Virus record (IMG/VR): IMGVR_UViG_3300045988_157791
Direction: 5' to 3' (one strand)
DNA length: 64,000 bases
Origin: a virus
Lineage: Duplodnaviria > Heunggongvirae > Uroviricota > Caudoviricetes
Shown here: positions 59 through 39,425 of the stretch, one piece after another
Layout: each line of letters begins with the position of its first letter
Numbering within the stretch: the first letter of the stretch is position 1
The notes under the pieces: model-generated
Told to the model about the DNA's origin: nothing
Database searches by the model: none
The model's input: the letters and a program-made list of their open reading frames with translations, nothing else
Program-made: the position numbers and the translations under genes

Positions 59-145
59 TGGTGGGGAGTGATGGAGTCGAACCACCCGAGTCGCAATGAC
101 AGTAGATTTACAGTCTACCCCGCTGCCCCTACGGACTAACTCCCC
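59..145 (-). tRNA. tRNA-Tyr (anticodon GUA), class II with long variable arm
   Basis: Reverse complement GGGGAGT...GTAGA-CTGTAAA-TCTAC...GGTGG-TTCGACT-CCATC-ACTCCCC-A-CCA; anticodon stem-loop, T-arm and acceptor stem pair correctly. Confidence 0.75.
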
Positions 146-150
146 TAAAT

Positions 151-225
151 TGGCGATGGTGGGTGGATTCGAACCACCGACCAGTTGGTTAACAGCCAAC
201 TGCTCTACCGCTGAGCTACACCATC
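151..225 (-). tRNA. tRNA-Asn (anticodon GUU)
   Basis: Reverse complement GATGGTG-TA-GCTC-AGCGGTA-GAGC-A-GTTGG-CTGTTAA-CCAAC-TGGTC-GGTGG-TTCGAAT-CCACC-CACCATC-G-CCA; complete cloverleaf. Confidence 0.85.
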
Positions 226-5791: not shown

Positions 5792-7132
5792 TTAGGTAAC
5801 GTCTAAGATTCGCTCAATGAAGCGCATTTGTTCGAGGTTTTGTTTAACGCGAATGCTGATCCCTCCCTGCTGGTTACGTGAACCAGCAAAGTAGAGACGA
5901 GCCTCTCCTTTCGCTTCTTCTTCTTCTGTTTTGTTGATCGTTATTACCAGGTCAGCAATACGTACTTTTTCGATGTTGTCGGCAGCGTGCATCATTGTGG
6001 CAACTTCTGACGCGCCACCTTCACGGTTTGTTTGCGATGCTGTGATACCAGCAACGTTGTGTTTGTCATAAAGAGCACGTAAGTCGGTATAGATACTACG
6101 TATGTTGGCGCGATCATCACGAAGGTCATAACTGGCACGCATCAAATCTGCATAGTCGACAACAACCATGTCAGGCACCATGCCATTGGCTTTCATGCTG
6201 TTAAGCATACGATCCAGATCTGCCGGTGACATACTTCCTGACGGACGCTCAACAACCCACAAACTACCAATCCCCTTCGTGGCTCCCAACTCTGCCAACT
6301 TACGATGAACTTCATCGCGCCGTTCCACCAACTTGGACATTTCCGTCTCCGACAATCTTGCATCAAAGCGGTCGGACAAAATGTTGGTGTGAACCTCCAG
6401 CGAGAGATACAGAACATTGTAGCCAGCAAGCGTTGCGTTTATGGAAAACTCACCCATTGCGGTCGATTTACCGGATTTAGCGAACCCCATGAAGAGCACC
6501 ATTTCACGCTTCGCCCAGCCTTTTTGGTACAGCAACCTATCGAGCAGAGGGAGTCCAGTTGTAATGCTGTTTGGCACATACTCCTCTGAAGCCTCATATT
6601 CACGCGCTTTCAATCGCTCACTTGCGGAGGTGTAGTAGTCATAGATTCCGGTCGCTTCGTTCGAGCCTATCTGCTGAACCTTGGCCATGATTGCCATCGC
6701 CCCCTGAAAGTCGCCCTTCTCTTTCAGTTCAGCAGCTTTAATCAGAGCATCATCAAACGCTACACTTTTTGCGAATGTGGATACCTGGTCAACCATGTAC
6801 GAGGTATCAGACAATTTTTCTGCAAGGATGCGCTTAAACGCAGCAACAACATCGGCGAATAGTTCCTCACGGATAGTCTTATCGCGTTTCGCACGCTTAA
6901 GCATATCCAGAATTGCAGATGAAGAGGGCGCGCTCTTGTACATACGGTAATAGCCCGAAACCATATTAACCAATATGGCATTGGCCGCATTGGCAAATTG
7001 GCTAGGCACAACCAGATCTCCCGCACGAGTAAGAAACTCGTGATCACGACAAAAATATGCCGTCAGTCTGTTCTGGAAATCTTCATCAAACTCTTCGGAC
7101 AGCCCGCGTCCTGTATGGCAAAGTTCGGTCAT
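5792..7132 (-). CDS. DnaB-like replicative helicase
   Basis: Walker A GFAKSGKST and DnaB-type Walker B VVVDYADLM. Confidence 0.75.
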   Translation of the reverse strand: MTELCHTGRGLSEEFDEDFQNRLTAYFCRDHEFLTRAGDLVVPSQFANAANAILVNMVSGYYRMYKSAPSSSAILDMLKRAKRDKTIREELFADVVAAFKRILAEKLSDTSYMVDQVSTFAKSVAFDDALIKAAELKEKGDFQGAMAIMAKVQQIGSNEATGIYDYYTSASERLKAREYEASEEYVPNSITTGLPLLDRLLYQKGWAKREMVLFMGFAKSGKSTAMGEFSINATLAGYNVLYLSLEVHTNILSDRFDARLSETEMSKLVERRDEVHRKLAELGATKGIGSLWVVERPSGSMSPADLDRMLNSMKANGMVPDMVVVDYADLMRASYDLRDDRANIRSIYTDLRALYDKHNVAGITASQTNREGGASEVATMMHAADNIEKVRIADLVITINKTEEEEAKGEARLYFAGSRNQQGGISIRVKQNLEQMRFIERILDVT

Positions 7133-7175
7133 GTGCTTTCCTTTGTTTTTTAAACAAATTGTTTTCTAGTATTAG

Positions 7176-7925
7176 TTAATTAGATAGGGGATCAATAAAC
7201 CGCCGTGCTTCTTCCAGTTCTTCTGGAAAGTGGGCGGAAATAAGGCGCTCTGGAACGATTTCCATTAGCCAGATAGCGGAGAAAATTGTGCGTATGCGCT
7301 TGCTGCGAGGGATGGTGCGCAAACGCTCCAGAATCCACTCAAAATAGCTTTCCTGAATCGGGTTGAACTGCATGTCTCCCATATGCTTAAAGCTAACGAG
7401 AGAGTCATCCAGACGGGTTGTTGCGCGTCTGGCTAATTTCTCTTCGAATATCTCAATCAGCTCTGGCTGCCACAAATGCTGTGGGCGCGGCAGCTTGTCC
7501 CACAGCCGTCGTGCAGCTGCGGAAAGAACGGTGGAGATAAAGTAGTCGTATGAGCAGCAATAGCGATCCGCAAACTGGCGTGCTTTCCATAGCGACGTTT
7601 TATTGGCAGTCGACAACTCCTGATAAGGCAGGCGTTTTAACCCGGTGGTGAACGGAGCTGTTTCAAAGTGTTCGCGACCGTGCGTCAGCATGATATTTGA
7701 GTACTGACGTTTGTATGCCTCCGTAAAAAGACAGGTGGCCATGAGAGGATGCATGTCGCGGTAATCAAACCACTTCGTCTCGAAGAGTTCAGCCTCGTCT
7801 TTACAGCGCGACAAACCAATGTTTTCAGCGACCCACTTGTCCATAACAGCGGTATTCCACTCTGTCATGAAGTCGTACTGGTCGTTGTCGATGGTATCGA
7901 AAAAGATTTGGCTCATGTGGCTCAC
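7176..7925 (-). CDS. hypothetical protein (249 aa)
   Basis: ORF at the head of the leftward replication-gene block; no recognisable motif. Confidence 0.5.
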   Translation of the reverse strand: MSHMSQIFFDTIDNDQYDFMTEWNTAVMDKWVAENIGLSRCKDEAELFETKWFDYRDMHPLMATCLFTEAYKRQYSNIMLTHGREHFETAPFTTGLKRLPYQELSTANKTSLWKARQFADRYCCSYDYFISTVLSAAARRLWDKLPRPQHLWQPELIEIFEEKLARRATTRLDDSLVSFKHMGDMQFNPIQESYFEWILERLRTIPRSKRIRTIFSAIWLMEIVPERLISAHFPEELEEARRFIDPLSN

Positions 7926-8032
7926 CTGGTAGGTAGTTACTTACTTATCACGATGAGCGGATGATAGCGACTGGTGGCAGTTTTTGGAAGTGGAAACGGA
8001 AGGGAGTTGTTCTGGTGGTGTCTTTTAAAAGA

Positions 8033-8087
8033 CCTGCTTCCGTATATATTTAATAAGTTACTTATTATTTATATATACAGAAGCAGG
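8033..8087. repeat. 55-bp extended palindrome, copy A
   Basis: CCTGCTTCCGTATATATTTAATAAGTTACTTATTATTTATATATACAGAAGCAGG; outer arms CCTGCTTC/GAAGCAGG around an AATAAGTTACTTATT core. Second copy at 39347-39401. Confidence 0.7.
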
Positions 8088-8198
8088 CATAACTTGTCGT
8101 CTTAGACGCCCAGAAGCTCTACACTTTGAGCCTGTTAAATTGATTAAAAACTTATGTGTAAAATAGAACGCATTAGTCAGTAGCAAAGAGATGCAATA

Positions 8199-8966
8199 AT
8201 GGACGATTTATCGGTATACGCGAGATCATTGGATAAGGCTAAATACTATGTTTACTGTCTCTATGATACAGAAGACAAGATGAAAAGACCGTTTTACATA
8301 GGAAAAGGCAAATCGACTCGTTGTCTCGATCACATCAAGTATCCCGATGACTCTCCCAAATCCATGCGGATCAAAGAACTTTTGGCTAATAAAAAATTAG
8401 GCATAGATATACTTCGTCATGGTATGGATGAAACCACAGCCAAACTTGTTGAGGCGACATGCATCGACCTTATGGGGGTCGGAGAGCTTACGAATAAGGT
8501 ACGAGGAAGTGGTTCCATGATGGGCAGAATATCACTGGACGCCTACCATCACTTAGTGCTGCAAGAGGAAACTGAAATTGCTCCTGAGCACGCCGGTCTT
8601 GCCTTCCTGCTAAACAGCACCTACAAGTCAGGAATGTCCGCTCTGGCATTATATGAAGCTACGCGTGGCGTATGGGCAAAGGTTCCAAGAGACGAGAATC
8701 TCAAATATGCCTACGCTACATATGGTGGGCTGATAATGGAAGTTTATCAGATTGAATGCTGGGTCAAAGCCGGTTCTCAGCAGTACTTTACAAGGGATAT
8801 AGCTCTTGGCCCCGACACAAAACGTTATGAATTTGTTGGCAGAATAGCCGATGAGCATATTAGAAAACTGTATGTAGGCAAATTAATCAAGAAGCCACCA
8901 AGCTACGGTAGCCCTTTTGTGAAGGTTGGGGTGGTTAGGACTGAACATAGTGTTAGCGCGGCATAA
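8199..8966 (+). CDS. GIY-YIG nuclease domain protein, free-standing homing-endonuclease-like
   Basis: N-terminal YYVYCLYD...RPFYIGKGKSTR...H matches the GIY-YIG signature; only plus-strand gene in a minus-strand block. Confidence 0.65.
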   Translation: MDDLSVYARSLDKAKYYVYCLYDTEDKMKRPFYIGKGKSTRCLDHIKYPDDSPKSMRIKELLANKKLGIDILRHGMDETTAKLVEATCIDLMGVGELTNKVRGSGSMMGRISLDAYHHLVLQEETEIAPEHAGLAFLLNSTYKSGMSALALYEATRGVWAKVPRDENLKYAYATYGGLIMEVYQIECWVKAGSQQYFTRDIALGPDTKRYEFVGRIADEHIRKLYVGKLIKKPPSYGSPFVKVGVVRTEHSVSAA

Positions 8967-8983
8967 AGCTGACACTGTAGTTA

Positions 8984-9012
8984 TGCATTGGCGCAATGTA
9001 CGCGCCAATGCA
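8984..9012. terminator. hairpin between convergent genes, likely bidirectional terminator
   Basis: GCATTGGCGC-AATGTA-GCGCCAATGC stem-loop followed by a T-rich tract. Confidence 0.5.
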
Positions 9013-9018
9013 TGATTT

Positions 9019-9378
9019 TTAACCTTTCTTCATCAACTCTCGTTTGATTTCATCGGTACGCATCGTGACATCGGCAGCGGTGATCGCCTCATTCAATTTC
9101 ACGATGTCCTCGATTTCCTGCGGTGACTTCTCTGCCAGATGGAAAATGGCTGCTCGAATCACGTCAGAACGAGTGAACTTCTCGAAGCGAGGGATGAACT
9201 TCATCATCTCCAGCAGTTCGAAGTATTCGTCCTCCAGTGACATTGTGCGGCTTTTAATTTTCTCTTTGCCACGAGTCGGGCGTCCCTGTGGTCTGACTGG
9301 TTGGCGCAAAGGAGTTGTGTTCTTAGCCGGTGCATCAGGCTCTTTGCGCTTTGCTAGGTCACCCATTTTCATGGACAT
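9019..9378 (-). CDS. ParG-like partition/centromere-binding protein (ribbon-helix-helix C-terminus)
   Basis: Directly downstream of the ParA-like gene (start/stop abut at 9378); basic disordered N-terminus plus RHH-like C-terminal segment. Confidence 0.5.
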   Translation of the reverse strand: MSMKMGDLAKRKEPDAPAKNTTPLRQPVRPQGRPTRGKEKIKSRTMSLEDEYFELLEMMKFIPRFEKFTRSDVIRAAIFHLAEKSPQEIEDIVKLNEAITAADVTMRTDEIKRELMKKG

Positions 9379-10046
9379 TATTCTTCTTCCTCCAGACTCA
9401 ACAGATAATCTACAAATTCTTCAAACTCGGCTTCCGCCTTTTTGTCGCGCTCGCTACCGGTCATTTCAAAGATAGAACGACCAGACTCTTCCGCATCATC
9501 ATAGACGTTGCGGTTATATAGATTGACTGGCGCAGACTCGATTCCAAACGTCTCAACAATCTCTTTAGCCGCCAGAATGCGAGACACTTGTGATGGCAAA
9601 GCCGGGCACTGGTTCATGACCGCGCGGACCTTCACTTTATCGTTTACATTGCGAACATTGTCGATAATAGGATCGATGTCACGTAAAGATTTCAAATCAC
9701 GACGCTTAGGACGCAGCGGGATAATGATAACGTCAGCCATCAGCATCGCTTGTCGCTGAATTTCGGAGTCGAAGCCACCAGCATCTACCACTACAAACTC
9801 AGCTCTACCCTGAAGCGATTTTAGGTGCTTAATGATGTCATCCTGAACGTATGCAAAAGGAATCAGCTCAAGGTCTTCGTTCTGTCGACGGTCTTCACAC
9901 CAGCTCGTTGTCGTGCGCTGAATATCTATATCGGTAATATAAACCTTCTTCTTCTTTTTGACTTTCAGGCAAACGGCAATTTGCTGGGCAACGGTGGATT
10001 TGCCAGGCCCGCCCTTTGTGCCGCCAACCACAAAGATCTTGGTCAT
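9378..10046 (-). CDS. ParA-family partition ATPase (small type Ib-like)
   Basis: Deviant Walker A GGTKGGPGKST near the N-terminus and VVVDAGG motif; 222 aa. Confidence 0.7.
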   Translation of the reverse strand: MTKIFVVGGTKGGPGKSTVAQQIAVCLKVKKKKKVYITDIDIQRTTTSWCEDRRQNEDLELIPFAYVQDDIIKHLKSLQGRAEFVVVDAGGFDSEIQRQAMLMADVIIIPLRPKRRDLKSLRDIDPIIDNVRNVNDKVKVRAVMNQCPALPSQVSRILAAKEIVETFGIESAPVNLYNRNVYDDAEESGRSIFEMTGSERDKKAEAEFEEFVDYLLSLEEEE

Positions 10047-10078
10047 TGGAGAGTTCCCTTTGCGTCTATTATTATCGT

Positions 10079-10112
10079 CTGAAACAACTTGTTTTCTTAT
10101 ATGTGATATAGC
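10079..10112. promoter_or_regulatory. palindromic operator GAAACAACTTGTTTTC upstream of the parA-like gene
   Basis: Near-perfect palindrome about 35 bp upstream of the ParA start; same motif recurs upstream of terS and several accessory genes. Confidence 0.5.
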
Positions 10113-10364
10113 CTAAATGCCTACGGCTACGGTGTAAAGGTTAAATGGTAGGTTGTGGTTAACAATTGGCAATCATAGCTTGTATTTGTCTGTTGAAAAA
10201 AGTAACAATGACCTCTATATTACAAGTACGGTGATATGCCGTACACAATTTGATAATGCACACGTAATGGGCTATAGCCTTTTAAAGTAATTTTTGAGTC
10301 GAAAACTCAGTTTGAACAGAGGAGATTGATGGCCTTCCTACATCACGGCCATCAGGAGGAATAC

Positions 10365-10634
10365 ATGTCAGCACTAAAAAAGCAGCGCATCGATTTGAGA
10401 TTAACCGATGACGATAAAAGCATCATCGAGGAAGCTGCCGCAATGTCTAACCAGAGCATTACTCAGTTTATGGTTAGCAGTGCATCTGAACGTGCCGTGA
10501 AAGTTATAGAGCAACACCGTAGACTAGTTCTGAATGAAGAATCCTGGAATCTGGTTATGGACGCTATAAGCAATCCTCCGGCACCGAACGACAAGCTGAA
10601 ACGAGCTGCTGATCGTCTGAAAAGCATGGAGTAG
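10365..10634 (+). CDS. DUF1778-type antitoxin (TacA/AtaR-like)
   Basis: MSALKKQRIDLRLTDDDKSIIEEAA... with AGGAGG ribosome-binding site before the ATG at 10365; 8 bp before the GNAT toxin gene. Confidence 0.75.
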   Translation: MSALKKQRIDLRLTDDDKSIIEEAAAMSNQSITQFMVSSASERAVKVIEQHRRLVLNEESWNLVMDAISNPPAPNDKLKRAADRLKSME

Positions 10635-10641
10635 TTTACTC

Positions 10642-11163
10642 GTGAGCAATACAACGATAGAGATTTTCTCTGGAGAGAAAGATTATGATCTAAACGGTTT
10701 TGATTGCGGCGAAGAGTCACTAAACGCCTTTTTAGCCAACCACTTAAAAAGGCAGCATGAGGGAAAAATTCTTCGTGCTTATGTGCTTTGCACTCAAGAA
10801 GAAAGGCCAAAAGTGTTAGGATATTACACTTTGTCAGGTAGTTGTTTTGAAAAGGAGTCCTTACCTTCAAGAAGCAAACAAAAGAAGGTTCCTTATCGGA
10901 ATGTTCCAAGTGTTACTTTGGGTAGGCTGGCTTTGGACAAGTCCCTTCAAGGTCAAGGATTTGGCTCAATGCTTGTAACACATGCAATGCGCGTTGTGTA
11001 CAATGCATCTCTTGCTGTAGGCATTCATGGACTTTTCGTTGAGGCGTTAAATGACAAAGCCAAGGCGTTTTATAAAAGTTTAGGCTTTATCCAGCTGGTT
11101 GGTAACAACGAGCGTTCTTTGTTCTATCCTACAAAATCTATCGAAAAATTGTTCGAAGAATAA
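10642..11163 (+). CDS. GNAT-family acetyltransferase toxin (TacT/AtaT-like)
   Basis: GNAT motif GQGFGSMLVTHAMR; classical DUF1778 plus GNAT toxin-antitoxin arrangement. Start codon is GTG. Confidence 0.75.
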   Translation: MSNTTIEIFSGEKDYDLNGFDCGEESLNAFLANHLKRQHEGKILRAYVLCTQEERPKVLGYYTLSGSCFEKESLPSRSKQKKVPYRNVPSVTLGRLALDKSLQGQGFGSMLVTHAMRVVYNASLAVGIHGLFVEALNDKAKAFYKSLGFIQLVGNNERSLFYPTKSIEKLFEE

Positions 11164-12816: not shown

Positions 12817-15800
12817 TCAGTTACTTGTTGCCCCAACAGTACCTGCAAATTTCAGCCATTGACCTGACGGACTTCTATTACTACGGTAGTGATAAACGAG
12901 GATTGCGTTTGTAATCCCACCATAGTCAGCTTTGTGTGACGTCGTTAAACGAATTGTATAATCACCGTTAGGTAGATTAAAAACTTCGATTATAGATTCT
13001 GCTAATTCTACAGCACCAAATCCCGTTATATTGTTGATACTGCCAGCATTGAATCCCATAGCATCGCCAAAGCCAATCCAATAACTTTTGCTAAACGCCC
13101 CATTTGATTTTAGGTGGCTAATGAATGCGGACAAGCTCATGCCCATATCCCCACCTGAAACAGAGGAAGTTCGCACAGTCATACTTGGAAGAGCACTGCT
13201 CTTCACATAGGAACTTAGAAGGTTTGTTACCTCTGTTTTCGTGTAAGCATTAAGGTTAGCCGCAGTCAAAGTTATATCGGCAGAGCCATCAAACGCCACA
13301 CCAGCAATTTTCCTTGCTGTCTGCAATTTTGTGGCGGTTGCGGCATTACCAGTAGTGTTCTGATTACCAGTTGTATTCACACCAGGGATTGAATCCTTAG
13401 CGGTATATACCTGCGCCCACGCTGACCATGCCGCATCAGTGGTATCTCTTCGGGAGCGAATGAAAACCGGCGCATGTGCACCGCTCGTACCACTCCAGCC
13501 AATAAGCAACTCGCCCTCACCAGCAGCACTCGCACCTTTCATGTGCAATACGTTGCCATACGTGGTCGGGTAGCTATTGTTGTACGCCTCATACATTTGA
13601 ATGCCAGCAGTGCCTTGAGTAGAGCCGCTTAACGCCGTAACTCGGCCACGAGATACCAATGTATTAATATTGATATCGCCTGAACCATCAAACTTAACAC
13701 CATTGATGTTTCTCGCTGTTTGCAACTTCGTAGCTGTTGAAGCATTACCGTTCAAACTACCATTTACGCCACCAGTCACATTTAGTCCATTACCAATTGA
13801 TACAGCACCGCTGGTATTATTAATTGTAATAGGTCGCAAACCGTTCCATGAACCTAATGTGTCTCCTGATGCTGTTAGCATGAAATATGTGTTCGATCCA
13901 TCATTACGGATAAAGAACCCAAAGCTACCGTAAGCAATGCGGAAACCATTTGCATATTTTGAAATGATCTCGCCAGAAGATGTCAAACCTCCAGATAATG
14001 TACCACCGGTAAGAGGTAATGCACCGACATCAGAGGCTGTTGGTTTGTTTTTCGTGTTATATACTCTTCGCCATCCTGGAGAATAATCTGTGCCATTAAA
14101 TACATAGATAAACTCCGCATTAGTGAGAGCACCGGAAACACTTGTCGTTGTGGCCGTTGTTATGCGGATCGTATAATTATTTGAACTACTACCGTTATTA
14201 AATACTTCTATAACAGCTCCTGCCAATGGAATAACGCCACAACCAGTTTCACTATTTGGTATGGTTGCGCTATTGGCATAGGCCCACGCACATCGAGCAA
14301 TCCATGCCTTTGTGTTAAAGGCTCCATTATTTTGCAATAACGTCACTAACTGGGCTGTTGTTATTGCTCCGCCATTACTTCCTGTAGTTAACCAACCAGT
14401 AGGAGATGCTGGGCAACCTATATTTGCTGGTGACAAGGAAATATTTGCCGAACCGTCAAACGACACCCCATTAATAGTACGCGCAGTCTGCAACTTCGTA
14501 GCAGTAGCCGCATTACCTGTTGTATTCTGATTACCAGTCGTATTAACACCTGGCAAATTAATATTTGCAGTACCATCAAAGCTCACGCCGCCGATAGTTC
14601 TTGCCGTCTGTAGTTTTGTAGCAGTTGCGGCATTACCAGTGGTGTTCTGATTACCCGTAGTGTTTACACCTGGAAGATTAATATTGGCAGAACCGTCGAA
14701 ACCAACTCCACCGATAGTTCTTGCCGTCTGTAATTTCGTTGCTGTAGCAGCATTTCCTGAAAGACTTGAAATAAATGGATGTGAACAGTAATAACCTCGT
14801 CCATTTTTAAAGTCCAAAATTATCTGTGCATTCGTACTTTCTGATAAAGGATCAGTTGCCCCCCACTTATAAGTGGTTTGACCAACTGCATAATCAGCCG
14901 TTGGAACAATCACATTTAATCCTTCCTCAGCAAAAATCTGGATAGGGAATGCTCTTGTCTCAACGTAAAATACACTACACAAATCATCATCTTTTACGCT
15001 TGCGATAATCGAGTGTATAGATCGTTCAACGGTTGAATATATTGAGAAAAAACCAACAGCATATGAACCGCGATCAGACCAACCGCCCGGCATAACAAAA
15101 CCATTAAACTCACAATTATTCATAGCGTATCCGCCAGCTGAGGAATAAGTGGTGATAACCACTCGTGAGGCTAATTCATCTGTGCCACCACCAGTTCGGC
15201 GAAAGACTACAGGATACCACTTACCGCTTACTGCATTTGCAGGAGCAGAGAAAGTGTATTTTCGCATCCCCTTTTTCTTATCCACTTCACCTTTGCTGTA
15301 AACATTAATGTTATTCAGGAAGCGGCCCTTGTCGGGGATATCAGCACCATTCTGATCCTTCTGTAGTCGTTTTTCAGCATTATCATATGCGGTCTTAACT
15401 GCTTTTGGTGTCGCGGCTAAAGATTCACTGGTGCTGTCGACAGCACTGCTAAGTTTCACAACACCTTTGGTGGTAAGGCTTGCGTCTTCCATCGCAACTG
15501 CACCGGCAATCTCTTCAGCACGATCAGCGGCAGCTTCCGCACGGGTCGCAGCGGATTCAGCAGCAGTTTTGCTCTGAGATGCAGCTGTCGCACTGCCTGC
15601 CGCCTCTGTTGCCTTCGTGGATGCCGTTGAAGCACTGCTCTTCGCTGCTGATGCCTGCTTGGTCGCCTCATCTTTTGAAGCGGATGCTGAGGTGGCTGAT
15701 GCAGACGCAGAACTTGCAGATTCAGCAGCTGCCGCCTTAGAGGAAGCAGCATTGTCTTCTGAGGTCTTTGCATTTGTTTCAGAGGTTTTTGCTGCCGATG

Positions 15801-16854
15801 CTGAATTTTTAGCAGCTGTAGCCTGACTCGTCGCCTCTGTCGCTTTTGTGGTAGCTGTTGTCGCGGATGACAATGCGCTATCCGCAGATTTTCCTGCCGC
15901 TGTTGCACTTGATGAAGCACTATCCGCACTTGCTGAGGCTGCACTTGCTGACGCTTCTGCCGCAGATTTCGAACTGTTTGCAGACGATGCACTCTGTTCG
16001 GCTGCCGTTTCAGATGCTTTTGCGTTTGCCTCTGACGTTTTTGCTGCCTTAGAGGAATTTGCAGCTTCTGTTGCCGATGATGCAGCCGCGTTTGCACTCG
16101 ATGAAGCGTTAGTCTCTGATGCTTTGGCTGCATCCTTAGATGCAGAGGCACTGGACGCAGATATTGCAGCCTCCGTTGCTTTGGTCGATGCTACAGACGC
16201 TGATTCTGCTGCCGCTTCTTTGGCGGCCTCTGCGTTCGTTTCAGATCTTTTCGCAGCAGTTGCACTCGCACTTGCAGCACTTTGTGAGGATGCCGCAGCG
16301 GATGCACTTTGAGACGCTTGAGATGCTTTTTCTCCAGCGGTATTGGCGCTTTCTGCCGCTGCGGCAGCACTGGCCGCCGCCTCACGAGCTTTGTCGCCAG
16401 CAGCATCAATCGCGTCAGTGTTATTTTTATACCACTCAACGTTTTCGTTGTGCTCGTTGACGATCTGCATTAGCGGCTTAACGGTCACTTCTGTACCGTC
16501 TTCACGCTCGATTGTCACCTCATCAAGAGCAGTCAACCAACTGCGCATAGACTTGGAATCAGCCGACATACGCGACATTAGTGCAGTAAAGCGCGCGCTA
16601 AACTGCGTTAAGTCACCTTCATAGGTCGTAATGATTCGGCACGGAACTTCAGACTGAGTTTCGCCGGTATAAGGTTCTGAGAGAACAATGTTTGTATCAC
16701 TGGTTACGCGCTTGATCTCATACAGCTTATTGTCGGGGCCAATGACGATCATGCCCGGCAACACACCATTAGCTGTTACGTTCCAGGCTGTTCCAACACC
16801 AACGAGAGTATTGCTACCCTGTGTAAATGTGATAGTACCTTCCCTGTACCACAT
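12817..16854 (-). CDS. tail fibre protein (1345 aa)
   Basis: About 270-aa Ala/Ser/Thr-rich low-complexity segment, then repeated blocks GNQNTTGNAATATKLQTARTIGGVxFDGSANI (at least 5 copies); last gene of the tail operon. Confidence 0.8.
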   Translation of the reverse strand: MWYREGTITFTQGSNTLVGVGTAWNVTANGVLPGMIVIGPDNKLYEIKRVTSDTNIVLSEPYTGETQSEVPCRIITTYEGDLTQFSARFTALMSRMSADSKSMRSWLTALDEVTIEREDGTEVTVKPLMQIVNEHNENVEWYKNNTDAIDAAGDKAREAAASAAAAAESANTAGEKASQASQSASAAASSQSAASASATAAKRSETNAEAAKEAAAESASVASTKATEAAISASSASASKDAAKASETNASSSANAAASSATEAANSSKAAKTSEANAKASETAAEQSASSANSSKSAAEASASAASASADSASSSATAAGKSADSALSSATTATTKATEATSQATAAKNSASAAKTSETNAKTSEDNAASSKAAAAESASSASASATSASASKDEATKQASAAKSSASTASTKATEAAGSATAASQSKTAAESAATRAEAAADRAEEIAGAVAMEDASLTTKGVVKLSSAVDSTSESLAATPKAVKTAYDNAEKRLQKDQNGADIPDKGRFLNNINVYSKGEVDKKKGMRKYTFSAPANAVSGKWYPVVFRRTGGGTDELASRVVITTYSSAGGYAMNNCEFNGFVMPGGWSDRGSYAVGFFSIYSTVERSIHSIIASVKDDDLCSVFYVETRAFPIQIFAEEGLNVIVPTADYAVGQTTYKWGATDPLSESTNAQIILDFKNGRGYYCSHPFISSLSGNAATATKLQTARTIGGVGFDGSANINLPGVNTTGNQNTTGNAATATKLQTARTIGGVSFDGTANINLPGVNTTGNQNTTGNAATATKLQTARTINGVSFDGSANISLSPANIGCPASPTGWLTTGSNGGAITTAQLVTLLQNNGAFNTKAWIARCAWAYANSATIPNSETGCGVIPLAGAVIEVFNNGSSSNNYTIRITTATTTSVSGALTNAEFIYVFNGTDYSPGWRRVYNTKNKPTASDVGALPLTGGTLSGGLTSSGEIISKYANGFRIAYGSFGFFIRNDGSNTYFMLTASGDTLGSWNGLRPITINNTSGAVSIGNGLNVTGGVNGSLNGNASTATKLQTARNINGVKFDGSGDININTLVSRGRVTALSGSTQGTAGIQMYEAYNNSYPTTYGNVLHMKGASAAGEGELLIGWSGTSGAHAPVFIRSRRDTTDAAWSAWAQVYTAKDSIPGVNTTGNQNTTGNAATATKLQTARKIAGVAFDGSADITLTAANLNAYTKTEVTNLLSSYVKSSALPSMTVRTSSVSGGDMGMSLSAFISHLKSNGAFSKSYWIGFGDAMGFNAGSINNITGFGAVELAESIIEVFNLPNGDYTIRLTTSHKADYGGITNAILVYHYRSNRSPSGQWLKFAGTVGATSN
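14440..14790. repeat. about 105-bp tandem DNA repeats inside the tail fibre gene
   Basis: Three near-identical units each encoding TTGNAATATKLQTARTIGGV-FDG-ANINLPGVN. Confidence 0.7.
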
Positions 16855-37341: not shown

Positions 37342-38598
37342 CTATCGAGAACCACCAAGAATAACACGGTTTTTGACTGGATACCTACGATGTACTGGAT
37401 AGCCCAATGCGTCTGCACTATGCTCAATGCCACCTGTCTTATCCATATCTCGTGTTCCAGGCTTGTAGATGACTTTTTCCAGTGAATCAATCAAATGCTT
37501 GCACTTCGGATCGATATACAGCCGGATATCTCCAGATGCGGACATCAGCATTCGGTTAACAGCATTAACACGATCCGCAATTGGCGGGTGCTTTTTCGAA
37601 TAATCGACACGTAAGAATCCCTTCTCTTTGAATATGTCTACGTCAGACTCCCCACGAGCATGTTGGCGATAAGCACCTGCCGGATCTGGAAATACCGTTA
37701 CCTGTGATTTCCAGCGCCAGAAGCGTCTCTCAAGCTCATCACAAACTTCTGCCGTGTTAGAGGAAAAGAGCACCAATTCATCAATTGCCCATAGCTCACC
37801 ATTTGGCTGAGGTTGCAAAATTACTGAAGACATCGGGTCAATGTTGAAGTCCTGCCCTACCCATATAGGCAACCGAGGGTTGAACTGAAGCGGTTTTACA
37901 TGCACGTTACGATCGAACGGGTAGTAAACGCGCCCGGACATGTTCTCAAAGCTGGCCAGGTACTCCTGAGCGAACGATTTGGGGTCCATATCGTTCTTAG
38001 CAGCTTCAATTTCCGCCGTAGGTACAAACGGAGAATCGGCAGTTACAAACTGCCAGCTCTTCCACTGTCCCTTTCTTTGCAGCTCTACGTTCTGGCCTAT
38101 AGTCCACAGTTTGTGAAATTCCGAGAAGCCTTTTGGCGTACCAATGATCAGTGCACCGCCGCGTGTCGATGAAAGAGTAGGTCGTAACACCTTGTACCAG
38201 GTGTCAGCCTTCATATCCTGAAATTCATCAAGCACTACAAAATGCAACGCTACGCCGCGCAGAGTGTCAGGCTTATCAGCACCTTTGAGGGCGATCTCCG
38301 AACCGTTCTTCAACACGATTGTCATCGTGGTGTCGTTCTTTTTCCTAACCCACTTACGAGGCAGAACTTCCTGTAGATCGTCCCACAAAATCTGGCGAGC
38401 CATCTGGTAAGTAGGAGCGACATACCAGACCCTTTGCTTTTTTTCCTTTGCCGCCGCACGAATAATAGTGGAGATCGACAACCGGGATTTTCCCCAGCGT
38501 CGACCAGCACAAACAACTTTAAATCGATGCGGAGACTGGAAGACTTTCATCTGTCCAGAATGCAGTTGCACAAGACTGAGCGAGGACGGGATTGCCAT
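37342..38598 (-). CDS. terminase large subunit
   Basis: Walker A VVCAGRRWGKS near the N-terminus, size 418 aa, 4-nt overlap with the upstream small subunit gene. Confidence 0.8.
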   Translation of the reverse strand: MAIPSSLSLVQLHSGQMKVFQSPHRFKVVCAGRRWGKSRLSISTIIRAAAKEKKQRVWYVAPTYQMARQILWDDLQEVLPRKWVRKKNDTTMTIVLKNGSEIALKGADKPDTLRGVALHFVVLDEFQDMKADTWYKVLRPTLSSTRGGALIIGTPKGFSEFHKLWTIGQNVELQRKGQWKSWQFVTADSPFVPTAEIEAAKNDMDPKSFAQEYLASFENMSGRVYYPFDRNVHVKPLQFNPRLPIWVGQDFNIDPMSSVILQPQPNGELWAIDELVLFSSNTAEVCDELERRFWRWKSQVTVFPDPAGAYRQHARGESDVDIFKEKGFLRVDYSKKHPPIADRVNAVNRMLMSASGDIRLYIDPKCKHLIDSLEKVIYKPGTRDMDKTGGIEHSADALGYPVHRRYPVKNRVILGGSR

Positions 38599-39230
38599 TA
38601 TTCGTCCTCCCCTTCACTTCCAACATCTGTCGCATCAAATTCGCTTAGAGCTTCTTCTTCCAACGTCTCAAGCAATTCGTCATCGATGATTTCAGGCTCG
38701 TCGTCTTCCTGACGTAATTTCGCCACCTGGGAAGGCGTAAGCTCACCAAATACCAGGTTCGGAATTTCTTCCTCGTCATTTTCCGCATGATCCATGCCCA
38801 ATGCTTTGGACGAAACTTCAAAGCATTTTGCAAGGGTATTACTGGCTCTCTGTAAGCTCTTGAGAGAATCCTCAATCGCCCCTAAAGGCTTACCCTCACG
38901 TTTGGCCGTAGTGACTTCGACCATCACCATCTGCCCCAACGCATACGCCCAGCCGTCATAACGTGTACGACGTTCTTCTATCTTTTCCGCACGGGCTTTA
39001 GCGCGAAGCTCTGCGTCAGATTTAAGAGACTCACGAACCATCTTCCCAACAGAGTCCGCGCCTTTCTCTAATCCTCGCTTTTTGAAATGTCTGGAGAGTG
39101 TTTCACGACGAATGCCGTACTCTTCCTCCAGCTTTGAGAGTGTATATTCGCCTGACGTCCATTTGGCTTCAGCTTCGGCCCACTCCGCTGGTGTCAGGCG
39201 AGTTTTTACCTCGTCTTTTTCGACCGTCAT
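38598..39230 (-). CDS. terminase small subunit (HTH-containing)
   Basis: N-terminal helix-turn-helix-like LSKLEEEYGIRRETLSRHF, very acidic C-terminus, coupled to TerL. Confidence 0.55.
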   Translation of the reverse strand: MTVEKDEVKTRLTPAEWAEAEAKWTSGEYTLSKLEEEYGIRRETLSRHFKKRGLEKGADSVGKMVRESLKSDAELRAKARAEKIEERRTRYDGWAYALGQMVMVEVTTAKREGKPLGAIEDSLKSLQRASNTLAKCFEVSSKALGMDHAENDEEEIPNLVFGELTPSQVAKLRQEDDEPEIIDDELLETLEEEALSEFDATDVGSEGEDE

Positions 39231-39346: not shown

Positions 39347-39401
39347 CCTGCTTCCGTATATATTTAATAAGTTACTTATTATTTATATATACAGATGCAG
39401 G
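39347..39401. repeat. 55-bp extended palindrome, copy B
   Basis: CCTGCTTCCGTATATATTTAATAAGTTACTTATTATTTATATATACAGATGCAGG; one mismatch to copy A. Confidence 0.7.
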
Positions 39402-39425
39402 TCTTTAAATAAGCTCCCAGACCGA

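Follow-up and report, generated by a model that had tools for sequence, protein, structure and literature searches.

Described members of the PD-T4-3/CMoRE family

The closest described systems to the gene considered here, which encodes a 255-amino-acid (aa) protein on the plus strand at positions 8199..8966 of a 64,000-nt stretch of DNA (the window; IMG/VR virus record IMGVR_UViG_3300045988_157791, Caudoviricetes), are the PD-T4-3/CMoRE nucleases. Judged from its sequence, the gene very probably encodes a divergent defence nuclease of this family and occupies, as a self-contained accessory cassette, a variable slot in the backbone of an SSU5-like phage-plasmid. PD-T4-3 was originally discovered in ECOR68, by functional selection in Escherichia coli (Vassallo et al., 2022, PMC9519451). 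It was renamed CMoRE in a study of the proteins from E. coli O157:H7 and APEC O1 (PDB 9U75 and 9U7U; Liu et al., 2026, PMC12923530). CMoRE is a type IV restriction enzyme consisting of a single protein, which binds and degrades DNA containing 5-hydroxymethylcytosine (5hmC) or glucosyl-5hmC and not DNA containing cytosine or 5-methylcytosine, cuts at CN11/N9G, leaving 2-nt 3' overhangs, and gives about 10^5-fold protection against T2, T4, and T6 without abortive infection (PMC12923530). Its activity requires a tetramer, organised as a dimer of dimers, and the inter-domain linker is disordered in the crystals (PMC12923530). A third tyrosine, giving the motif “GIYxY-YIG”, and an acidic loop lying over the active site, the latter present in “most” members, were proposed as family signatures; the removal of four acidic residues from this loop resulted in the cleavage of ordinary DNA and in toxicity (PMC12923530).

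Data on other members extend this picture. The Capnocytophaga homologue PD-T4-3Capno, 48% identical to the E. coli prototype, is modification-dependent and cuts also Mu DNA, which contains carbamoylmethyl-adenine; PD-T4-3 homologues obtained in metagenomic selections were “almost always” modification-dependent, and the substrates of the family are known to be plastic, including 5hmC, glucosylated 5hmC (5ghmC), and the carbamoylmethyl-adenine of Mu (PMC12366544). Since PD-T4-3Capno is also modification-dependent, the transfer of function across divergent family members is supported. A native E. coli copy of PD-T4-3 restricts Tevenvirinae (10.1101/2024.12.20.629700), and DefenseFinder calls of PD-T4-3 were reported for SSU5 clade J phage-plasmids of E. 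coli and Shigella (preprint 10.1101/2025.09.12.675607). Both the presence of PD-T4-3 in clade J SSU5 phage-plasmids (the 2025 preprint) and the mechanism of the family (solved in 2026) are already known, and what is new here is limited to the exact borders of the cassette, the hotspot-like nature of the slot, including its empty site and its uncharacterised occupants, the difference in the acidic loop (lid), and the separation of a neighbouring palindrome from the gene.

Assignment of the window protein to the family

The gene on which the assignment is based is the following.

8199..8966, plus strand: PD-T4-3/CMoRE-family gene, 255 aa, ATG start, recognised by its open reading frame (ORF), motifs, and family matches

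A first-pass annotation, prepared from the DNA letters without database searches, had described this ORF as having an N-terminal GIY-YIG module and an uncharacterised C-terminal region. The first part agrees with our data: the motifs YVYCLYD and FYIGKGKSTR are present, and the Pfam family LEM-3_GIY-YIG is matched above its cut-off, marginally (30.1 bits, cut-off 27) and in the nuclease domain alone, with no match to the protein in NCBIfam. The second part has to be revised, since the C-terminal half has a match in CMoRE, namely its modification-sensing domain. The PADLOC model of PD-T4-3 (PDLC04031) aligns with residues 11-231 of 255 over profile positions 11-238 of 256 (E 1.3e-23, 81.9 bits). 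The only PDB entries matched by sequence are 9U7U and 9U75, with both halves of the protein spanned (E 2e-15 with the single sequence), and a profile of 38 sequences matches 9U7U over positions 10-232 with E 4.8e-23. The C-terminal sensor domain can be aligned to CMoRE down to its end, both in the sequence alignment and in the profile. The AlphaFold2 model of the protein (mean predicted local distance difference test score, pLDDT, 81.8) has a disordered linker at residues 96-108, and in Foldseek searches with this model four PD-T4-3 chains rank first (E 4.7e-12 to 6.7e-11, 257-261 aligned columns).

The catalytic site was compared in an alignment of 55 members, chosen as diverse family representatives and including both CMoRE sequences. 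Y17-V-Y19 and F-Y33-I-G of the window protein align with Y17, Y19, and Y31 of CMoRE, so that the third tyrosine of “GIYxY-YIG” (Y19) is kept. Residues Y17, Y19, Y33, G35, R41, E85, and N99 are invariant (55/55), H45 is found in 54 of the 55, and the same catalytic-site residues are invariant also in 38 close relatives. The active site is therefore intact, and the absence of catalytic residues, which the first-pass annotation had named as a finding that would refute its reading, was not observed. At the interface positions, as read from the alignment with the PDB sequences, V84 corresponds to V92 of CMoRE and C88 replaces L96, a residue of the dimer interface.

By sequence and predicted fold, the window protein belongs to the PD-T4-3/CMoRE family, which provides its best match in both respects. 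It shares with CMoRE and PD-T4-3 the single-gene organisation, the length of about 250 aa, the N-terminal GIY-YIG domain with the triple tyrosine and the catalytic arginine and glutamate, and the C-terminal sensor domain. It differs from CMoRE in the lid, in the cysteine at the L96 position, and in being carried on a phage-plasmid. Like PD-T4-3Capno, it is a divergent member of the same family (PMC12366544), although the Capnocytophaga enzyme is 48% identical to the E. coli prototype and is active also on Mu DNA. In comparison with type IV enzymes that have PUA-like readers (VcaM4I of the EVE-HNH type, the McrB N-domain, and the PvuRts1I/SRA type), the window protein has GIY-YIG instead of HNH or PD-(D/E)xK; the similarity of fold to these enzymes, seen with the predicted model, is marginal. 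The family is large, with 1,330 clusters at 50% identity (E<=1e-10), and its top-ranked members are mostly about 250 aa long and cover nearly the whole profile. The subfamily of the window protein (50-79% identity, about 246 aa) occurs throughout the Gammaproteobacteria. The system is single-component: the cassette of 933 bp consists of one gene, and the chromosomal homologues are lone genes.

Several observations weigh against this assignment, or against the simple extension of the CMoRE function to the window protein. The global template modelling score (TM-score) of the model to 9U75 is low (0.37), which is probably due to the two predicted domains being oriented differently to each other across a flexible, low-confidence linker. 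Over about 236 residues, only about 32% are identical to CMoRE; given this distance from the characterised enzymes and the plasticity of the family, the substrate could differ. The loop between α2 and α3 is 5 residues shorter than in CMoRE and reads YPDDSPKS, with two acidic residues (DD), in place of ...VDDDELL... (DDDE or DDDD in the CMoRE sequences). The window protein does not have the four consecutive acidic residues of the CMoRE-type loop, which lowers the similarity and is still compatible with membership. With this “safety-catch” shortened, the control of self and non-self cleavage may work differently. However, a short α2-α3 loop is found also in most of the 55 representatives sampled, so that the long DDDE loop would seem to characterise the CMoRE clade rather than the family as a whole. 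Two chromosomal homologues (P0004 and P0031) are isolated genes amid housekeeping genes, with no recognisable defence island around them, hence the genomic context gives no independent support for the window subfamily. Neither the NILS69 paper nor the text of Vassallo et al. (PMC9519451) gives a location or sequence by which an assayed PD-T4-3 would fall in this subfamily. Finally, consensus promoter and terminator scans of 7850..9100 called no site, so that a promoter of the gene's own can be put forward as a suggestion, and the hairpin that follows the gene (8983..9013) is recognised by its folding energy.

A modification specificity or self-control different from that of CMoRE is the most serious open alternative. 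It assumes that a PD-T4-3-family protein has a materially different job in the window, acting on another modification or on unmodified DNA under different control, or contributing chiefly to the competition among mobile elements and not so much to defence against T-even phages. The identity of about 32% to the assayed enzymes would allow for it, as would the plasticity of family substrates (PMC12366544); however, the metagenomic PD-T4-3 homologues were modification-dependent nearly without exception (PMC12366544). Another argument comes from the autoinhibitory loop, cut to two acidic residues in the window protein, since CMoRE without its four acidic residues cleaves ordinary DNA and is toxic (PMC12923530). 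Against this, loops that are short and only in part acidic prevail among the 55 representatives, and strong self-toxicity is made less likely by the stable maintenance of the gene, at >=95% identity, in 107 E. coli genomes. Taken together, this alternative is considered improbable.

Borders and spread of the cassette

Over 7000..10100, the window matches E. coli plasmid NZ_MT773672 at 100% identity, “Escherichia phage CMS-2020a” at 99.5%, and, with a gap, Salmonella phage SSU5 at 84%; the window therefore belongs to an SSU5-like phage-plasmid. The borders of the cassette were mapped by pairwise comparison with eight relatives, among them phage Cyrano, SSU5, CMS-2020a, and four E. coli plasmids. 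Homology ends at 8087/8088 (8097 in Cyrano), directly after the palindrome, and restarts at 9015-9021, at the stop codon of the gene for a 119-aa protein. The features of the cassette and its flanks are as follows.

7176..7925, minus strand: 249-aa protein (phrog_2500), conserved left flank of the slot and first gene of the block that runs into the DnaB-like helicase and primase genes
8033..8087, no strand: imperfect 55-bp inverted repeat, copy 1, part of the backbone and outside the cassette, at the left edge of the slot
8088..9020, no strand: exchangeable accessory cassette of 933 bp (about 110 bp of upstream region, the gene, and the hairpin), absent or replaced in relatives
8159..8164, plus strand: possible -10 element TAAAAT, preceded by TGTG, 35 nt upstream of the ATG; a weak candidate picked by eye
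8983..9013, plus strand: terminator-like hairpin with a perfect 12-bp stem (extendable to 16 bp) and a 7-nt loop, followed by GAUUUUU (-25.1 kcal/mol, z -5.0)
9019..9378, minus strand: 119-aa ParA partner (phrog_5111), conserved right flank, downstream of parA; its stop codon is the right edge of the slot
9378..10046, minus strand: ParA-type ATPase, a partition gene in the conserved right flank

The hairpin behind the gene had been described as bidirectional. The hairpin itself is real; its minus strand has no U-tract, and because the U-tract follows on the plus strand alone, bidirectionality is not supported. The hairpin travels with the cassette, as is seen in plasmid pB379_2, in which the stem is identical and the 7-nt loop (8995-9001) is replaced by its reverse complement; in BLAST comparison of the window with this plasmid, 8981..9013 aligns at 100% on the opposite strand.

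The cassette was found in 107 of 5,426 complete E. coli genomes (about 2%), always plasmid-borne and always at >=95% identity. The backbone is present in 264 of the same 5,426 genomes, and about 107 of these 264 carry the cassette. In PLSDB, SSU5-like plasmids number about 700. This distribution bears on the possibility that the protein is a repair or structure-specific nuclease of the LEM-3/UvrC/Slx1 type, serving the replication of the phage-plasmid, as suggested by the RefSeq name of the gene, “LEM-3-like GIY-YIG domain-containing protein”. About 60% of the backbones, and SSU5 itself, lack the gene, and replication therefore does not depend on it. Moreover, the Pfam match behind such a name barely exceeds its cut-off and covers the nuclease domain, whereas the full-length match is to PD-T4-3, and a role in repair is thus regarded as extremely improbable.

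The spread of the cassette can be followed in pB379_2, where it is 98.3% identical to that of the window, in contrast to flanks of 84% and 87%. High identity extends over about 7986-9058 and tails off by about 9308, reaching into both flanks at unequal distances. Such a pattern points to homologous recombination in the conserved borders and not to precise site-specific insertion. It is proposed that the cassette passes in this way, by recombination in the conserved flanks, between diverged SSU5-like backbones.

The variable slot and its other occupants

The first-pass annotation placed the gene as an insertion between the block of replication genes and the partition genes, and this holds: relatives without the gene exist, including an empty site. 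The comparison with relatives lacking the insertion, which it had recommended, yielded both an empty site of 32 bp and alternative cassettes. Among related phages and plasmids, at least six unrelated cassettes, on either strand and mutually exclusive, occupy the slot. Phage Cyrano has there a minus-strand gene for a DUF2971 protein (PADLOC candidate PDC-S31), and SSU5 has DUF2971 (PDC-S31) with two more genes and no gene of the PD-T4-3 family. Another occupant is a KAP-type P-loop NTPase of 567 aa (PADLOC candidate PDC-S49). Further occupants and the empty site, with coordinates in the respective related E. coli plasmids, are listed below.

L005 (pZ1323HEC0016-2) 1589-1622, no strand: empty site, 32 bp, with no slot content
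L006 1707-2765, plus strand: 352-aa protein in the slot
L007 1790-2467, plus strand: 225-aa protein in the slot
L008 1598-2765, minus strand: two-gene unit (140 and 250 aa) in the slot

The empty slot of 32 bp was found in at least two plasmids. For the 352-, 225-, 140-, and 250-aa proteins no informative match was obtained in PADLOC, Pfam, and PHROGs, with PHROGs of unknown function as the only ones recovered; for the 250-aa protein there are two matches near the E 0.01 cut-off (Pfam/PADLOC). The occupants thus comprise one known defence system (PD-T4-3), two PADLOC candidates (DUF2971/PDC-S31 and KAP NTPase/PDC-S49), and four unmatched proteins from three cassette types, and the 352-aa, 225-aa, and 140+250-aa cassettes are candidates for new accessory or defence genes. 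It is also worth noticing that insertion sequence (IS) elements lie in or next to the slot of some plasmids, IS100 by the GIY-YIG gene and IS1 by DUF2971 (NZ_CP017847.1, NZ_JBQRBK010000004.1).

Conserved flanks, mutually exclusive unrelated inserts, and exchange between lineages are all observed at this locus. The slot has the anatomy of an accessory or defence hotspot as in P2/P4 (PMC13586616), with which it shares also the presence of defence or candidate defence genes and the exchange between diverged backbones. It differs from the P2/P4-type hotspots in belonging to an SSU5-like phage-plasmid, in its position between the partition operon and the block of replication genes, and in that known or candidate defence models match only some of its occupants. 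No published description of this slot was found in the literature search.

The variability of the slot is also essential for the evaluation of the view put forward in the first-pass annotation, that the gene is a free-standing GIY-YIG homing endonuclease. Such an enzyme would cleave related phage-plasmids at the empty site that separates palindrome and partition operon, and repair with the occupied allele as template would then copy the gene into them. In line with this view are the GIY-YIG fold, the solitary plus-strand orientation, and the fact that the gene is present in some relatives and absent from others. However, at least six unrelated cassettes in one slot make variability a property of the slot, unlike homing into one target site, and the recombination end-points fall within the flanks, unequally far out, a pattern like that of ordinary homologous exchange. 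The palindrome is outside the inserted unit, and the homologues with 50-79% identity are single chromosomal genes in various Gammaproteobacteria. The protein itself argues in the same direction. Profile searches of the kind the annotation had advised recovered GIY-YIG in Pfam, but a homing-type C-terminal DNA-binding module was found by none of Pfam, NCBIfam, and PHROG; the C-terminal half matches the CMoRE sensor and not NUMOD, IENR1, helix-turn-helix (HTH), or zinc-finger modules. The full-length match to PD-T4-3/CMoRE thus sets the window protein apart from I-TevI and the T4 Seg endonucleases, with their linker-plus-DNA-binding modules, since its C-terminal domain is, by sequence similarity, a putative reader of base modification. 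Homing is accordingly judged very improbable, while the role in defence that the same annotation had mentioned as a second option is supported by the family membership indicated by the sequence.

Proposed mode of action and significance

If the window protein works as a PD-T4-3/CMoRE-type enzyme, its C-terminal domain would, by homology to CMoRE, bind hypermodified bases of incoming phage DNA, most likely the 5-hydroxymethyl- or glucosyl-hydroxymethyl-cytosine of T-even phages. The binding would bring the N-terminal GIY-YIG domain, with Tyr17, Tyr19, Tyr33, Arg41, and Glu85, which align with the catalytic residues published for CMoRE, into position to cut both strands. In this way, modified phage DNA would be destroyed directly, and the unmodified host chromosome and the phage-plasmid would be spared, so that the resident phage-plasmid could shield both its host and itself from phages with modified DNA. 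If the proposed function is right, common phage-plasmids of E. coli and Shigella would give the host a ready-made barrier against modified-DNA phages (e.g., the T-even phages).

The importance of this is modest and concerns the host range of phages in therapy and the way in which phage-plasmids pay their way. The slot is the more useful by-product, as its borders are defined, an empty site serves as a reference, and several occupants are uncharacterised, which makes it a cheap place to seek defence genes. The divergent lid can be considered as a natural variant for probing how CMoRE-type enzymes avoid the cleavage of self DNA. A far-reaching proposal would be that the SSU5-type subfamily reads other modifications or controls itself differently, that the palindrome-bounded slot is an undescribed defence hotspot of SSU5-like elements, and that the 352-aa, 225-aa, and 140+250-aa occupants are new anti-phage genes; as a whole it is speculative and rather unlikely.

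The 55-bp palindrome

The gene had been described as preceded by a 55-bp palindrome. The palindrome is real and lies at 8033..8087, but it is imperfect, belongs to the backbone, and is a mere positional neighbour of the gene. A second copy is located elsewhere in the window.

39347..39401, no strand: palindrome copy 2, 54/55 identical to copy 1, about 117 bp upstream of the minus-strand ORF 38598..39230 (phrog_867)

The outer 17-nt arms of copy 1 are 94% complementary and the inner 16-nt arms 88%, with ungapped symmetry at 18 of 27 positions. Its predicted fold has -23.3 kcal/mol on the plus strand (z -7.4) and -30.2 kcal/mol on the minus strand (z -9.2), with 0 of 200 shuffled sequences as good. 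The half-site occurs 4 times in the window, compared to 0.04 expected. The two copies are 31.3 kb apart, and each precedes a minus-strand block, at about 110 bp from its first gene (7925 and 39230). Copy 2 has on one side an 88-aa ORF and on the other the 210-aa ORF of phrog_867 (“DNA binding domain”), which is directly upstream of a 418-aa ORF, taken as the putative large terminase, an assignment made without a family search.

The palindrome is present in every backbone examined, whatever the content of the slot, including the plasmid with the empty site. It is 91-100% conserved in the SSU5-like phages of Escherichia, Salmonella (SSU5), and Klebsiella, the last with a partition region that is only about 79% identical, and 84.5% conserved in Escherichia phage Cyrano. 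Its maintenance across backbones and relatives indicates a selected DNA element of the backbone and not a companion of the nuclease gene. The palindrome was also considered as a signal for cassette insertion or as the target of the nuclease, and both were rejected, for it is present regardless of what the slot holds, has a second copy 31 kb away, and is conserved in the Klebsiella relatives. An intrinsic terminator of the partition operon was considered too; UCUUUU follows copy 1 on the minus strand, but the minus strand of copy 2 is without a U-tract. The palindrome is perhaps an operator, an origin-associated site, a terminator, or an element related to packaging. A perfect 14-bp palindrome, GTCTTTTAAAAGAC, at 8020-8033 abuts the left arm of copy 1, and the related TCTTTAAAT is found on the opposite side of copy 2 (39402-39410).

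Gene order around the slot

On the minus strand, the local gene order is tRNAs, DNA ligase, primase, DnaB-like helicase, and the 249-aa protein, then, after the plus-strand gene, the 119-aa protein and the ParA-type ATPase. The left end of this order is given by the following feature.

59..225, minus strand: tRNAs, left end of the local gene order

As the first-pass annotation had noted, no other gene in the first 10 kb is on the plus strand: between the tRNAs and parA, every other credible gene is on the minus strand, and the same layout is found in the RefSeq annotation of a plasmid that carries a 100%-identical cassette. The flanking proteins of 249 and 119 aa had no matches beyond PHROGs of unknown function in PADLOC, Pfam, and PHROGs.

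Just past parA, at 10326-11163 on the plus strand, a TacA-like antitoxin gene (Pfam TacA1, E 8.6e-26) is followed by a toxin-like gene for a GNAT acetyltransferase. The counterpart of this pair in phage Cyrano is annotated as a KacT-type toxin-antitoxin module. Because some relatives (PhiR41_1 and SSU5) hold different genes at this position, it may be a second variable slot. Further on, at 12817-16854 on the minus strand, there is a tail-fibre-like ORF of 1,345 aa, which contains several near-identical copies of the motif GVNTTGNQNTTGNAATATKLQTAR... and a long low-complexity tract rich in alanine and serine.

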